DNA of 29,605 bases from a virus. Its lineage: Duplodnaviria > Heunggongvirae > Uroviricota > Caudoviricetes. Below, piece by piece: positions 1,591-10,151 of this stretch. The position numbers and the translations under genes are program-made. The stretch lies in the IMG/VR virus record IMGVR_UViG_2547132415_000023. The stretch is one strand, 5' to 3'. The first letter of the stretch is position 1, and the number at the start of each line of letters is the position of its first letter. The notes beneath the pieces are model-generated. The model searched no databases and was not told where the DNA came from. It saw only the letters and a list, made by a program, of their open reading frames with translations.

Positions 1591-2451
1591 TTATACGTGT
1601 TTTTCCAATGTGAAAACTACAACCCCGGCAGGCGTAATGTCGGTAATGTTGCATTCAAACTCAGCAGACTTATTTGACAACCTGACTTTTCCACCAGGTA
1701 AACGAATTACATCAAAAACATCAAGAGCGCCGTCGATATCAATTAACCAGCGACCATTACTTATATTCGAAGCAGAACAGTCGACAAGCCAAGAGGCAGC
1801 TACACCGTCAACAAAAATCAATTCCCCTGAGTTAGAAGGAATCATTGAGGGGTCAGGATGCCACGTTCCTGCATCCTTAAGCTCACCAGATTCAAGACGA
1901 GATTTTTTAATAGAAAAACCAGATGTGACATCTTCCCTGTTAGCTCGCATTTGCCCCTTGCCTGTTGCTAACCATTCCAGTGACGTATCGGTATCAAGAG
2001 CGCATGTAACAACAACATCACCAGGGAAAAAATCTCGCCTTACCCATGTGCTAATTGTGCCAGAGGAAATGCCGAGCAAATCACCGAGCTCCTTTTGCAT
2101 GGTAAAGCCATACGCATCAAGAATCCTACGCAAAACGGTTTTACCACCATTCGTCATAATCTCGTCATAAAGCTCTTTGCCTTTTAACTTGCAACTGGCT
2201 CGCTCGTGATTTGCATTTGCAAGCTCTCCATTTACAAGCCAATTGATATCAGCTCCCGTGTCAAGACAACACCTAACTATGACATTGCCAGGTATTGCAT
2301 CACGCTGAACCCAGCCGCTAACGCTGTGTTTAGCGATACCTAGCAGGTCAGCCAAATCCTTTTGCATCTTGACCCCATAGGCTGACATTAAGCGTTCCAA
2401 TACGCCGTTCGTTGCACTAACACGCCACTGAACATCAAGCTCAGAACTCAT
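1591..2451 (-). CDS. cI: 186-type CI immunity repressor with tandemly duplicated N-terminal HTH domain
   Basis: 286 aa. Residues ~14-75 (VLERLMSAYGVKMQKDLADLLGIAKHSVSGWVQRDAIPGNVIVRCCLDTGADINWLVNGE) and ~102-163 (VLRRILDAYGFTMQKELGDLLGISSGTISTWVRRDFFPGDVVVTCALDTDTSLEWLATGK) are clear internal repeats of a phage CI-type HTH domain. Divergent from the apl/cII operon and upstream of int, as in 186. Confidence 0.85.
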   Translation of the reverse strand: MSSELDVQWRVSATNGVLERLMSAYGVKMQKDLADLLGIAKHSVSGWVQRDAIPGNVIVRCCLDTGADINWLVNGELANANHERASCKLKGKELYDEIMTNGGKTVLRRILDAYGFTMQKELGDLLGISSGTISTWVRRDFFPGDVVVTCALDTDTSLEWLATGKGQMRANREDVTSGFSIKKSRLESGELKDAGTWHPDPSMIPSNSGELIFVDGVAASWLVDCSASNISNGRWLIDIDGALDVFDVIRLPGGKVRLSNKSAEFECNITDITPAGVVVFTLEKHV

Positions 2452-4513: not shown

Positions 4514-6736
4514 TTGGCTGTTCAATTCGCTTATCCGTGGAACGTCCCACGGTCGGCAATCTCCAGCCCATACCTTACTTATGAGCAACAGCATCGCCGC
4601 GACCGTATGTTCGCGGCTTTGCTGCATGCAAAAAAGGTGCTTTCTCTCCAGCCCGACTGCGTGCGGTTAGATGTTTATCGCACTGCTGCGGTGCTGGAGC
4701 AAAATCAGGGTAGTCAACGAGCCAATGCATTTTTAATCAACTTCTGCAAAAAGGCATTGCCGCGTCTTGAAATGGTCGCAAAAAAATACGAATGCGCTGG
4801 TATCAACAGCAAGGTATCAACCGCTGTTTTTGGAAGTCATTTTGATACTCAGCAAATGCAATATCTGTCGTCACGCATGGTTAATATGGTCGCCCGATAT
4901 AACCGTCTCCCGGATATGTCGCGCGCTGATGTTGACCTGTTGGCCGCTGATATTGCTAATTTCATTCGTGGTGAACTTGCCAACATTAATGACCACGGAT
5001 TCGGCGAGCTTAAAACGCTGTACACCTGGTATATTCGTGCTGGCTTTATTTCCCTCCAATTTAACGTTATCCCACCACATTGGGAGCGGGTTGAAAAAAA
5101 ATATGTCGGTGCGGATGAAATCGCACCGGCTATCGCCAAAATGTTTAACGATGGGTGGTGGCGCGGTCGTTTGCGCCGTGTTGCAGCTACGTGGCGCGAA
5201 CACCTGCAAATTGCAGTCGGCAACGTCAGTAAGAAAAAAAACACTTACGCGAGTAAAAACTGCGTGACTGACTGGCGTGAACAAAAGCGCCGCACTCGTG
5301 AATTTCTCAAAGGTCTGGATCTCGAAGACGAAGACGGCAACCGTATCAGCCTGATTGAAAAATATGATGGCTCAGTTGCTAACCCTGCGATTCGCCGCTG
5401 TGAGCTCATGACCCGCATTCGTGGGTTTGAAAACATCTGTAATGAGCTCGGTTATGTCGGTGAGTTTTACACTCTAACCGCGCCGTCAAAATATCACGCC
5501 ACGACTAAAGCCGGTTACCGTAACAGCAAATGGAGCGGTGCCAGCCCGGCTGACACGCAAAACTATCTAACCGGTATCTGGGCGCGTATCCGTGCCAAAC
5601 TACATCGGGAAGATGTCCGTATTTTCGGTATTCGTGTCGCCGAGCCTCATCACGACGGCACTCCACACTGGCACATGCTGATGTTCATGCTGCCGGAAGA
5701 TGTTGAATATGTTCGCTCCATCGTCCGTAAATACGCATGGAAAGAAGACCGCCACGAACTGAAAAGCGATAAATCCAAAAAAGCACGTTTCCACGCCGAG
5801 TCCATTGACCCGGAGAAAGGCAGCGCAACCGGCTATGTTGCTAAATACATCTCAAAAAATATCGACGGTTATGCTCTCGATGGTGAAACCGATGATGAAA
5901 GCGGTGAGCTGCTGAAAGAGACAGCCCCCGCCGTTTCAGCATGGGCTGCGCGCTGGCACATCCGTCAGTTTCAGTTTATTGGTGGTGCGCCGGTGACGGT
6001 TTACCGTGAGTTGCGTCGCCTCGCTGATACCGAAACCGCGCACGGTCTGAGCGTTGAGTTTGCCGCCGTCCATGATGCCGCCGACGCTGGTGACTGGGCT
6101 GGTTATGTTAATGCTCAGGGTGGGCCGTTTGTCCGTCGCGATGATTTACAGGTGCGCACACTGTATGAACCGCGTACCGAGCTTAATCAGTACGGTGAGG
6201 AAACGGTATGTATTAAGGGGGTCTACGATTCCTCCATAGGTGCAGGAAGCCCGATTTTAACCCGGCTCACTCAGTGGAAGATTGTTCCGAAGCGTGCTGT
6301 TGATTTGGCCGTTGACCTTCAGGACGGCAAAGCCGTCCCTCGGAGTTCTGTCAATAACTGTACGGGAAGCGAAAGCGATCCACCGATACTGGATTTAACA
6401 AAACCACTGAGTCGGCGTGAAAGACGAGAATTGACCAACCGACTCAGGAAGCAAAAGCCAGCAGCACGGCGAAAATTCATCCACGGAACGGATGAGCAAA
6501 ACGCAGCTATAGCTAAAACTATCGACGAGATACATCTGACAACCGGCATTAATATCAGCCGGGGCGAAGCCCTGCACCTGATGGCCGGTGGTAAAAGTTG
6601 TTTTGATGGTAAATGGCTACGCGGAACGGCCAAAGGAGAAATATTTTCCGCAGCACCATCGCATGAGGCTAAAGCTCGGAAAATCCTTAATCGTGTTGCG
6701 GCGATGGCTGAAGCATCAAAACCAATACATGAGTAA
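4514..6736 (+). CDS. A: Replication initiation endonuclease gpA (rolling-circle initiator)
   Basis: 740 aa. HxH metal motif region EPHHDGTPHWHMLMF and catalytic-tyrosine region GYVAKYISKNIDGYA are typical of P2/186 A proteins. Position after the early genes fits. Confidence 0.9.
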   Translation: MAVQFAYPWNVPRSAISSPYLTYEQQHRRDRMFAALLHAKKVLSLQPDCVRLDVYRTAAVLEQNQGSQRANAFLINFCKKALPRLEMVAKKYECAGINSKVSTAVFGSHFDTQQMQYLSSRMVNMVARYNRLPDMSRADVDLLAADIANFIRGELANINDHGFGELKTLYTWYIRAGFISLQFNVIPPHWERVEKKYVGADEIAPAIAKMFNDGWWRGRLRRVAATWREHLQIAVGNVSKKKNTYASKNCVTDWREQKRRTREFLKGLDLEDEDGNRISLIEKYDGSVANPAIRRCELMTRIRGFENICNELGYVGEFYTLTAPSKYHATTKAGYRNSKWSGASPADTQNYLTGIWARIRAKLHREDVRIFGIRVAEPHHDGTPHWHMLMFMLPEDVEYVRSIVRKYAWKEDRHELKSDKSKKARFHAESIDPEKGSATGYVAKYISKNIDGYALDGETDDESGELLKETAPAVSAWAARWHIRQFQFIGGAPVTVYRELRRLADTETAHGLSVEFAAVHDAADAGDWAGYVNAQGGPFVRRDDLQVRTLYEPRTELNQYGEETVCIKGVYDSSIGAGSPILTRLTQWKIVPKRAVDLAVDLQDGKAVPRSSVNNCTGSESDPPILDLTKPLSRRERRELTNRLRKQKPAARRKFIHGTDEQNAAIAKTIDEIHLTTGINISRGEALHLMAGGKSCFDGKWLRGTAKGEIFSAAPSHEAKARKILNRVAAMAEASKPIHE

Positions 6737-6812
6737 TTCATATCCATATCATGCACATACAGCAATCGCTCTATTCGTTTTTTTTCTTCCCATCTTTTGC
6801 CAATACGTGATA

Positions 6813-6828
6813 CTGTATAAATATACAG
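6813..6828. promoter_or_regulatory. LexA (SOS) box overlapping the promoter of the downstream small ORF
   Basis: CTGTATAAATATACAG (CTGT-N8-ACAG), within TACTGTATAAATATACAGTA, a 19/20 match to the palindromic enterobacterial SOS-box consensus. 22 bp upstream of the ORF starting at 6850 (RBS GGGAGGG); possible -35 TTGCCA at 6797-6802. Confidence 0.75.
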
Positions 6829-6849
6829 TAACCCTATGGGAGGGATTTC

Positions 6850-7032
6850 ATGGTTGGCGAACATTTCAGCCGAACGCAGCAAAAGTGGGCTTGTGTGCAA
6901 TTTATTGCCGAGGTATCTCTGATTGCAAACTGCAAGCCATCAGACTTAAAGCTCGCGCTCACTCTCATTGCAGACCTAGCAAACAGCGAAAATAACGAAA
7001 CCGAAGATGATAATTTTTATAAGGCTGATTAG
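6850..7032 (+). CDS. SOS-controlled small protein, candidate Tum-like antirepressor N-terminal part
   Basis: 60 aa ORF directly behind the LexA box with a strong RBS. Ends at TAG 7030-7032, in frame with the following DinI-like ORF. Confidence 0.5.
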   Translation: MVGEHFSRTQQKWACVQFIAEVSLIANCKPSDLKLALTLIADLANSENNETEDDNFYKAD

Positions 7033-7035
7033 ATT

Positions 7036-7266
7036 ATGAGAATCAATATCACGTTGGATAAAGAGCAAAAATTAGGGCAACAGATCATTGATGCTTTTCA
7101 GAATGAAATAACACATCGAGTACAATGCGTTTTTCCTGCAACAAAAGTTAACGTTAAGAAAGGGTCAATGACTAGTGTAGAGGCTATCGGATTCGATAAA
7201 GAGACGGACAGAGAAACATTAGGCAGCATATTACAAGAGATTTGGGAAGACGATAGCTGGCGTTAA
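7036..7266 (+). CDS. DinI-family protein
   Basis: 76 aa: MRINITLDK...IIDAF..EITHRVQCVFP...ILQEIWEDDSW matches the DinI pattern (MRIEVTI...RRIQYAFP...ILQETWE..DDW). Same frame as the preceding ORF. Confidence 0.75.
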   Translation: MRINITLDKEQKLGQQIIDAFQNEITHRVQCVFPATKVNVKKGSMTSVEAIGFDKETDRETLGSILQEIWEDDSWR

Positions 7267-7308
7267 ACATAATAACCGTGCTGGCGCAAAAACTAGCTTT
7301 TTGCGTCG

Positions 7309-7465: not shown

Positions 7466-7693
7466 ATGCATCGACTATCAGGTGAAATTCCGCATCACAA
7501 AACCAAAAGCATCAAACTGATGGCCATCGTTCATCGTCTGCAGCAGATAATGGTCAATGAGAATTTGACACCCACAGAGCTGGTCGGGTGTGCCGAAATA
7601 GTCAGGGATAATTACGGCAAGCTGGATAGCATCAGCAGGCCGATACAATACGCCCCCCACCACGTCGACGATAGCAAACGTCGTCAGCGCTGA
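7466..7693 (+). CDS. Hypothetical small protein
   Basis: 75 aa ORF with GAGGGCG RBS, bracketed by the two ~40-bp direct repeats. No recognisable motif. Confidence 0.35.
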   Translation: MHRLSGEIPHHKTKSIKLMAIVHRLQQIMVNENLTPTELVGCAEIVRDNYGKLDSISRPIQYAPHHVDDSKRRQR

Positions 7694-8239: not shown

Positions 8240-9568
8240 ATGAATTGTAATGAACTTTTTTATTCCGCTGACAACCATGCATTAACGTTGCATGAAAGAA
8301 CAAAGTTATCTACGGTTGTTTTAGATAAAGGCATTACAAAAAAGAATGAATTAATAGAGTTTTTGAGAGAGGAATTAAAAGGGTCATTTGGTTGCGACGT
8401 TAAGTTTTGGTTGCAAGGATCATACAAAAGTCACACTCTCATTAAGCCTGTTGATAAGTTTTCTTCATATGATATTGATGTGGGCATTTATTTGTTCTTT
8501 GATGCAGAGGCTGAAGAGATTAATTCAAAGGATGTAAAGGATACGTTGAAAGATGCTTTACTATCTTACTGCGAAATAAATAACGAGGCGAAGATTCAGG
8601 AGTCAAAGAATGCGTGTGAGGGATTAATATTCTCCTCCTTTCTTACAATCGACACCCCTATCTATTATAAAACAACGACAAAAGTAAAACTTGCAACAGA
8701 TAAAGGTTGGAGTGATAGCGATCCAAAAGCTATACAAGACTGGTTAACAAATTCACATGCTACAAAACCAGCTAGAGCATTAATGAAACGGCTCGTCCGT
8801 TACTTTAAAGCATGGGTTAATGTACAGTGGCACGGTACTTCATTTAAAAAAATACCTTCGTTAGCGATAAATGTCCTAGTTGCTAATAACTTAAGTATCC
8901 ATGATAGAGAGGACGATTGTTTTATATATACAGTGTTAGCTATTTGTGAGCAATTAGAGCGCTCAATGGAAGTAGAGAATCCTCTTAATGGCACCAATTT
9001 GCTTGCGATGCCTGATGATGCTTTAACTTTCGCGCATCAAAAGCTTCAACAATTGAAGAAAGTTTGTATAGATTGTATAGATGCCAACGAAAATGAAAGG
9101 AATATAAATTTTTCTAATTTATTCCAACATTATTTCCCTCAGGTAACGATCGTATCAAACGGAGGGGGAACTGGTCTGCCAGCGATTACTACAACCCCAG
9201 AAATATCTGTCTGTCGTTATGATAAACATGGTTCCCACATTGAAACTGTCTTAACGGATCAGTTAACGGTTGATAAAGGTGACTCATTAACATTCACCAT
9301 TTGTAATCCTGGGGCTTTTAGCCCTTATGCTCAGACGAAATGGACGGTTAGAAATGTTGGTAGCCAAGCTAATGATGCCAATGATATAGGGCACATTGAA
9401 TATGGAAAACCCAACGAAAGTCATAAACGGGGAACGTCTTATACTGGCTCGCATACGATGGAATGTATGGTTACTTACAATGGCGCTGTTTTAGGTTTAA
9501 AAGTTATTCAAGTTATAGTACGGCCTGCAATTTCTGTTAAAAGACCTATTAGAAAGTTTTGGAGATGA
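8240..9568 (+). CDS. cGAS/DncV-like (SMODS-type) nucleotidyltransferase with C-terminal extension; candidate signal synthase of a defence module
   Basis: 442 aa, strong RBS AGGAGG at 8231-8236. Pol-beta NTase signature G60-S61 ... D78-I-D80 (QGSYKSHTLIKPVDKFSSYDIDVGIYLF), with further acidic residues downstream. About 140 C-terminal residues are Gly/Thr/Ser-rich and beta-like with no recognised match. Low-GC gene. Confidence 0.7.
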   Translation: MNCNELFYSADNHALTLHERTKLSTVVLDKGITKKNELIEFLREELKGSFGCDVKFWLQGSYKSHTLIKPVDKFSSYDIDVGIYLFFDAEAEEINSKDVKDTLKDALLSYCEINNEAKIQESKNACEGLIFSSFLTIDTPIYYKTTTKVKLATDKGWSDSDPKAIQDWLTNSHATKPARALMKRLVRYFKAWVNVQWHGTSFKKIPSLAINVLVANNLSIHDREDDCFIYTVLAICEQLERSMEVENPLNGTNLLAMPDDALTFAHQKLQQLKKVCIDCIDANENERNINFSNLFQHYFPQVTIVSNGGGTGLPAITTTPEISVCRYDKHGSHIETVLTDQLTVDKGDSLTFTICNPGAFSPYAQTKWTVRNVGSQANDANDIGHIEYGKPNESHKRGTSYTGSHTMECMVTYNGAVLGLKVIQVIVRPAISVKRPIRKFWR

Positions 9569-9572
9569 TAGT

Positions 9573-10151
9573 ATGTGGGAACTAATGCCACCAAAAGCTA
9601 AATACGGCTTATCAATTGGAATTTCTATTCTTATCTTCCTTATGTATAAGGAATGTTTTAAGTTTCCTTTTGCTAGATCTATCTCCTTTACGATCAGTAC
9701 CATTACCATCCTTGCTTGGTTATTTGGAAAGTATTTATGGAAATATATTTATTTTGGTATCTTTAAACGGAATTTTTGCCCAGATTTTAATGGCACGTGG
9801 ACGGCTACGATAAAATCAAATTTTAGCCCGAATACTCAGGTTGAATTTCCATTAAAGATAGAGGCTAATTTCTTCTCTGTTAAGATGACAGGCAATACCA
9901 CTATCGGAAGAACCTACACAAATCTATGTAAAATTGTTCGTGCAGAAGATGATAGTTTCGAGTTGGTATATATGTTTAGAGTTATGAATGACTCTCCATC
10001 TGATTCTGATGCTGTTTTCTATGAAGGGGCGGCGAGGTTACGTGTAGTTGACATTGACTCTATGCAAATGATAGGGGTCTTTTGGACAAATCGATGTTGG
10101 CAAAATAATTTAAACACTGCTGGTTCTATAACTTTAACGAAACAGAGTTAG
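9573..10151 (+). CDS. Small membrane effector candidate: two N-terminal TM helices plus beta-rich C-terminal domain (Cap15-like)
   Basis: 192 aa, starts 4 nt after the NTase stop with its own GGAG RBS. Hydrophobic segments LSIGISILIFLMY (~13-25) and ISFTISTITILAWLF (~37-51); the C-terminal ~130 aa shows alternating hydrophobic patterns suggesting beta strands. Confidence 0.65.
   Translation: MWELMPPKAKYGLSIGISILIFLMYKECFKFPFARSISFTISTITILAWLFGKYLWKYIYFGIFKRNFCPDFNGTWTATIKSNFSPNTQVEFPLKIEANFFSVKMTGNTTIGRTYTNLCKIVRAEDDSFELVYMFRVMNDSPSDSDAVFYEGAARLRVVDIDSMQMIGVFWTNRCWQNNLNTAGSITLTKQS

Follow-up and report, generated by a model that had tools for sequence, protein, structure and literature searches.

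An in-frame TAG as the probable ordinary stop codon of tumA in the two-gene SOS operon of a PSP3-type prophage

Coliphage 186 expresses the protein Tum, which binds the CI repressor and prevents operator binding, from the LexA-controlled p95 promoter (PMC3121763, PMC7708051). Tum has been described as an antirepressor apparently fused to a DinI sequence (Lemire et al. 2011, PMC3121763). Its gene is annotated as one 146-aa CDS with the internal products Tum95.2, Tum95.4 and Tum95.5, the last of which is a 76-aa protein made from an internal GTG, and the truncated products are annotated with an SOS-signal-modulating role on RecA. For the division of tum into two genes, Bunny et al. 2002 is reportedly the primary reference. 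This tumA/tumB split is already known, published and annotated for PSP3, and has been reported for Fels-2 as well; in both phages a stop codon divides tum (Lemire et al. 2011, PMC3121763). The antirepressor role of PSP3 TumA is cited there as a personal communication (PMC3121763). The PSP3 GenBank record (AY135486) describes tumA as 'similar to 5' end 186 tum; UV induction of prophage' and tumB as 'similar to dinI and 3' end of 186 tum', in the same layout as found here. The dinI-gfoA/gftA loci of the Gifsy prophages likewise combine a small antirepressor and a DinI homologue in one LexA-controlled operon (Lemire et al. 2011, PMC3121763), although dinI comes first, which reverses the gene order, and the antirepressors show no sequence relationship and act on other repressor families. 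Deletion of the dinI homologues of the Gifsy prophages had no effect on induction (Lemire et al. 2011, PMC3121763).

Here, the window (i.e., the whole analyzed stretch of 29,605 nucleotides, IMG/VR virus record IMGVR_UViG_2547132415_000023) was found to be a PSP3-like prophage of the P2/186 family (Eganvirus-like). The tumA-tumB region is 99% identical to Escherichia phage vB_EcoM-613R3; its close relatives include Salmonella phage PSP3, SEN1, SW9 and other Peduoviridae, with coliphage 186 more distant. The original prediction, made from the letters of the sequence, had pointed to a single TAG between a 60-aa ORF and a 76-aa DinI-like ORF, and had left a nonsense-interrupted antirepressor, a genuine split into two genes and a sequencing error as possible readings. 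We hold, with a probability of roughly 90%, that positions 6787-7305 are a two-gene SOS operon (tumA, tumB) of a PSP3-type prophage and that the TAG is the ordinary stop codon of tumA. What the analysis shows directly is how the two genes are built and what they are homologous to, that the stop is conserved, that both genes are under purifying selection, and that a LexA box and a cognate CI are present. The features of the locus and of the two phage genes that place it are as follows.

1591..2451, minus strand: cI immunity repressor gene, 286 aa, 281/286 identical to PSP3 CI
4514-6736, upstream of tumA: gpA, P2-type replicase gene (PF05840, E=2e-130)
6787..6816, plus strand: SOS promoter, equivalent of 186 p95, placed by alignment to annotated p95 (U32222)
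6811..6830, plus strand: near-consensus LexA box TACTGTATAAATATACAGTA, read from the sequence, overlapping the -10 hexamer
6838..6844, plus strand: strong tumA Shine-Dalgarno GGGAGGG, 5 nt before the ATG, conserved in related loci (26/26)
6850..7032, plus strand: tumA, putative small antirepressor gene of 60 codons, with ATG at 6850 and its natural stop TAG at 7030-7032
7021..7024, plus strand: weak tumB Shine-Dalgarno AAGG, lying within the 3' end of tumA, 11 nt ahead of the tumB start codon
7036..7266, plus strand: tumB, DinI-family gene of 76 codons, with ATG at 7036 and stop TAA at 7264-7266
7280..7305, plus strand: terminator-like hairpin and T-run after tumB, at the same place as the 186 partial terminator t95a

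The arrangement of the two ORFs was as first described: a single codon, ATT (7033-7035), lies between the tumA TAG and the tumB ATG, both genes share one frame, and a hypothetical readthrough product of tumA-TAG-ATT-tumB would be 138 aa long. Two neighboring genes share a frame by chance in one case out of three, and because of this prior the in-frame relation of tumA and tumB carries no weight alone. The description of 186 Tum in the original prediction, as a protein of ~146 aa with a DinI-like C-terminal half, also proved correct, as Tum is 146 aa long and its residues 71-146 are 68% identical, ungapped, to the 76-aa ORF. The locus resembles 186 in having a LexA-controlled promoter at the same genomic position and two homologous modules (phrog_1993 and DinI-like), the second of which 186 also makes separately as Tum95.5, starting at a GTG opposite the tumB ATG. 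It differs in consisting of two cistrons, and no single ~146-aa polypeptide with both modules is encoded in the window; what it shares with a 186-type Tum is the homology of both halves and the p95-type, LexA-controlled promoter. Resemblance to PSP3 is closer and extends to the position downstream of gpA, the LexA box, the TAG-ATT-ATG junction, TumA (59/60 residues identical to AY135486) and CI.

Homology of TumA to the N-terminal half of 186 Tum was seen at the profile level. TumA matched phrog_1993 (E=1e-31; 1.1e-31), as did 186 Tum residues 1-61 (E=1.4e-22), and hhalign aligned the TumA core (16-47) with 186 Tum 14-45 at E=1.2e-4 and ~34% identity over 32 residues, a degree of divergence that is consistent with different CI specificity. 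BLASTP gave no pairwise match between TumA and 186 Tum, so the homology rests on the profile matches, and Pfam returned no family for TumA. Three further PHROG families with profiles 61-66 positions long were also matched by the N-terminal half of 186 Tum. The conserved TumA core KWACVQFIAEVSLIANCKPSDLKLALTLIADLA, invariant in an alignment of homologues, is present in the window protein. In the AF2 model, TumA forms a hairpin of two helices (8-25 and 30-50) followed by a disordered acidic tail, with a pLDDT of 71 (moderate confidence).

A search of 5.8 billion proteins recovered 208 TumA homologues, and nearly all of the 120 listed were 60-61 aa long. Their source genera include Escherichia, Salmonella, Klebsiella, Citrobacter, Cronobacter, Yokenella, Kosakonia and Pluralibacter, and UniRef gives several of them the name TumA. 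When 1.84 billion cluster representatives were searched with a profile, 35 relatives were found, none of them fused to DinI. A 137-aa representative (P0148) was considered as a candidate fused form and rejected, its C-terminal part being unrelated to DinI; a 109-aa outlier likewise has an unrelated tail. The window protein belongs by length and sequence to the PSP3-type family of stand-alone proteins of ~60 aa, and its setting is that of PSP3 TumA, with gpA of a P2/186-like prophage upstream, a LexA box ahead and a PSP3-immunity CI repressor in the same prophage.

That CI is annotated as such in both phage 613R3 and PSP3, and the near-identity of TumA and CI to their PSP3 counterparts suggests that the two form a cognate antirepressor-repressor pair. 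As an observation in its own right, the window CI contains two similar tandem helix-turn-helix segments at approximately residues 14-77 and 105-165 (e.g., VLERLMSAYGVKMQKDLADLLGI... and VLRRILDAYGFTMQKELGDLLGI...), a sign that its DNA-binding domain may have been duplicated internally. CI of 186 has 192 aa, compared with the 286 aa of the window CI.

The second ORF encodes a complete DinI-family protein. TumB matched Pfam DinI (PF06183) at E=1.4e-17 and 64.2 bits, above the gathering cut-off of 24.2, over profile positions 2-62 of 63, and phmmer aligned TumB 1-75 with E. coli DinI 1-77 (PDB 1GHH) end to end at E=3e-8. In the C-terminal acidic helix, ILQEIWEDDSW of TumB stands opposite ILQETWESADDW of DinI, preserving the ILQE-WE-D-W pattern, and tumB is LexA-controlled like dinI. 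TumB differs from E. coli DinI, to which it is only distantly related, in being phage-encoded and second in an operon behind an antirepressor. Coverage of phrog_189 was restricted to positions 71-148 for TumB, compared with 1-148 for 186 Tum. The first methionine of TumB falls on M1 of E. coli DinI and, in 186 Tum, on V71, where Tum95.5 starts with GTG; since TumB and DinI begin at the same residue, the gene boundary is also the domain boundary.

Upstream of tumA, the p95-type promoter has a -35 hexamer TTCCCA (6787-6792), an 18-nt spacer and a -10 hexamer TACTGT (6811-6816); a generic sigma-70 consensus scan did not call it, and its placement is by homology to 186 only. The LexA box sits 37 nt 5' of the first ATG, that of tumA, and corresponds in the alignment to the LexA site annotated in 186. 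A CTG-N10-CAG box was present 36-41 nt 5' of the tumA ATG in all loci in which it was looked for (26/26). At the other gene, the weak AAGG together with the stop-ATT-ATG junction and its 3-nt gap suggests that tumB may be translationally coupled to tumA.

Conservation of the stop was assessed at 111 loci, comprising 28 GTDB species representatives, 80 IMG/VR contigs, PSP3, 613R3 and the window. At all of them (111/111) tumA ends at ~60 aa with TAG, TAA or TGA and none is fused, a DinI-like ORF follows tumA in 58, and the remaining 53 lack such an ORF in the 400 nt downstream; as the 80 IMG/VR loci were retained as the nearest relatives, proportions among the 111 are not unbiased. For the GTDB species representatives, 21 of 28 lacked a DinI-like ORF within 1.5 kb. 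Where tumB is present, most junctions consist of a stop, one codon and ATG, and related loci repeatedly show the sequence TATAAGGCTGA(T/A)TAG(A/T/G)T(T/C)ATG. The codon between stop and ATG can be ATT, TTT, GTT, ATC or GCG, one relative has TAA as the stop, and the gap, commonly 3 nt, measures 2 nt (Phytobacter), 13 nt (Pantoea) or 94 nt at junctions that are out of frame. Both genes are under purifying selection, with a median pairwise dN/dS of 0.10 for tumA and 0.18 for tumB. Two of the tumA loci (L009 and L012) come from records labeled 'Bacillota bacterium MAG' and 'Chryseobacterium sp.'; they are 84-90% identical to enterobacterial tumA and most likely represent contaminating or mis-binned enterobacterial contigs.

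Complete E. coli genomes gave a comparable picture. This type of tumA was found in 81 of 5,426, and 27 of the 81 matched the full region at 97-99% identity; all 10 of the full-length matches listed have two annotated CDS, and among the genomes listed RefSeq placed no pseudogene flag on matches covering both ORFs. The 186-type tum region was matched in 42 of the 5,426 genomes, with at least 80% of the region covered in only 5.

These results bear directly on the readings left open by the original prediction. A 186-like fused tum that gained a premature TAG, leaving a crippled antirepressor and a poorly inducible prophage, would place two ORFs in frame one codon apart, and a fused form does exist in phage 186. 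However, the supposed lesion is shared by the entire set of loci and is spelled with three different stop codons, it persists in the 53 loci that have no tumB close downstream, and neither a lineage-specific stop nor relaxed selection, the marks of a pseudogene, was observed. PSP3 carries the same TAG junction in a tumA noted for UV induction of the prophage, and RefSeq flags no pseudogene in the E. coli genomes listed. In addition, the DNA alignment showed that 186 has an extra 12-codon linker joining its two modules and a AAGGAGGG Shine-Dalgarno before its internal GTG; more than a single nonsense codon thus separates the fused form from the split one, and they are not one point mutation apart. 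The original prediction had further proposed that an interruption would be refuted if homologous prophages consistently encoded two genes with divergent junctions and 186 Tum had no DinI-like half; the former was borne out, whereas 186 Tum does have such a half. Taken together, an interrupted antirepressor is highly improbable. A sequencing or assembly error, for which there is only the general possibility, is scarcely credible, as the junction TATAAGGCTGATTAGATTATG is found letter for letter at 40 loci, among them the window, PSP3 and phage vB_EcoM-613R3, and the two-CDS arrangement recurs in the independent E. coli assemblies.

A further alternative is that the TAG is partially read through in a programmed manner, yielding a small amount of a 138-aa TumA-TumB fusion beside TumA and TumB and thereby mimicking full-length 186 Tum. 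If this were true, a leaky stop would reproduce the multi-product output that 186 obtains from internal starts. The two genes are in frame with exactly one sense codon between them at 53 of 58 junctions, and always so in the Escherichia/Salmonella/Citrobacter/Enterobacter clade, and 186 itself makes both fused and separate products. Shared ancestry within a single clade is nevertheless the simplest explanation of this constancy, and the TAA of one relative, the out-of-frame gaps of others and the absence of tumB from half of the family all count against readthrough; no readthrough-promoting element was identified. We consider programmed readthrough very improbable. The remaining reading of the original prediction, a genuine split into two genes, agrees with the PSP3 annotation, with the published description (Lemire et al. 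2011, PMC3121763) and with all 111 loci, and is the one adopted here. The TAG at 7030-7032 provides no ground for a pseudogene flag or for a prediction of poor inducibility.

A working model for the two-gene operon can be drawn by analogy, with antirepressor activity, RecA binding and translational coupling taken from work on PSP3, 186 and DinI. In an undamaged lysogen, LexA bound to the box over the -10 hexamer would hold the operon off. DNA damage would activate RecA and lead to LexA self-cleavage, permitting a bicistronic tumA-tumB transcript to be made. TumA, with its two helices and acidic tail, would then bind the prophage CI and stop it from binding its operators, which makes it the candidate antirepressor needed for SOS induction and would allow lytic growth to begin. 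Translation of tumB would be coupled to that of tumA through the stop-ATT-ATG junction and the weak internal Shine-Dalgarno. By analogy with DinI, the complete DinI domain of TumB probably binds the RecA filament and tunes the strength or duration of the SOS signal.

Comparison with PSP3 also indicated that the two genes assort separately. At the nucleotide level, window and PSP3 are 98.9% identical in tumA and 90.7% identical over the junction and the first ~40 nt of tumB, and only 49.2% identical in the remainder of tumB, where identity to 186 is 70.2%. Accordingly, the window TumB has 45% protein identity to PSP3 TumB and is nearer to the C-terminal half of 186 Tum (68%), with the breakpoint ~40 nt into tumB. 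One tumA allele is thus combined with various tumB alleles, with an apparent breakpoint in the conserved 5' end of tumB, and such independent assortment is what two independent genes would show. Those partial E. coli matches that were listed stop at query position 243-286, no further than approximately window position 7075. Window positions 7033-7075, containing the first ~40 nt of tumB (ATGAGAATCAATATCACGTTGGATAAAGA.CAAAAA), are near-identical in the window, PSP3 and 186, with identity falling to 50-70% in the flanks, and this segment looks like a recurrent recombination breakpoint at which tumB alleles are swapped.

Seen across the survey, the stand-alone antirepressor of ~60 aa is common, the DinI module is optional and exchangeable, and the fused Tum of 186 is the exception. 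On this basis, the fused 186 Tum looks like a derived gene fusion, in which the internal GTG and its Shine-Dalgarno look like a relic of a formerly separate tumB. For annotation, the 60-aa ORF, which is entered as a 'hypothetical protein' in RefSeq E. coli genomes, would be better described as a putative prophage SOS antirepressor.

Two further features were noted 3' of the operon. Beyond the tumB terminator, an ORF of 75 aa (7466-7693, plus strand) matches phrog_11386 (unknown function, E=8e-43) and occupies the place of PSP3 gp37 (orf37) and 186 orf97; it is possibly reached via readthrough of the partial terminator. Approximately 1 kb 3' of tumB and before the oppositely oriented late genes, a two-gene CBASS-like defense cassette spans window positions 8240-10151 (plus strand). 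Its first gene encodes a CD-NTase/oligonucleotide cyclase of 442 aa (PADLOC PDLC00824, E=1e-159) with Pfam DncV-like NTase and AGS_C sensor domains, and its second a 192-aa 2TM effector (PDLC00682, E=1e-29). The cassette resembles cargo carried by a variable region of this P2-like prophage, and in PSP3 other ORFs (gp37, gp38) take its place.
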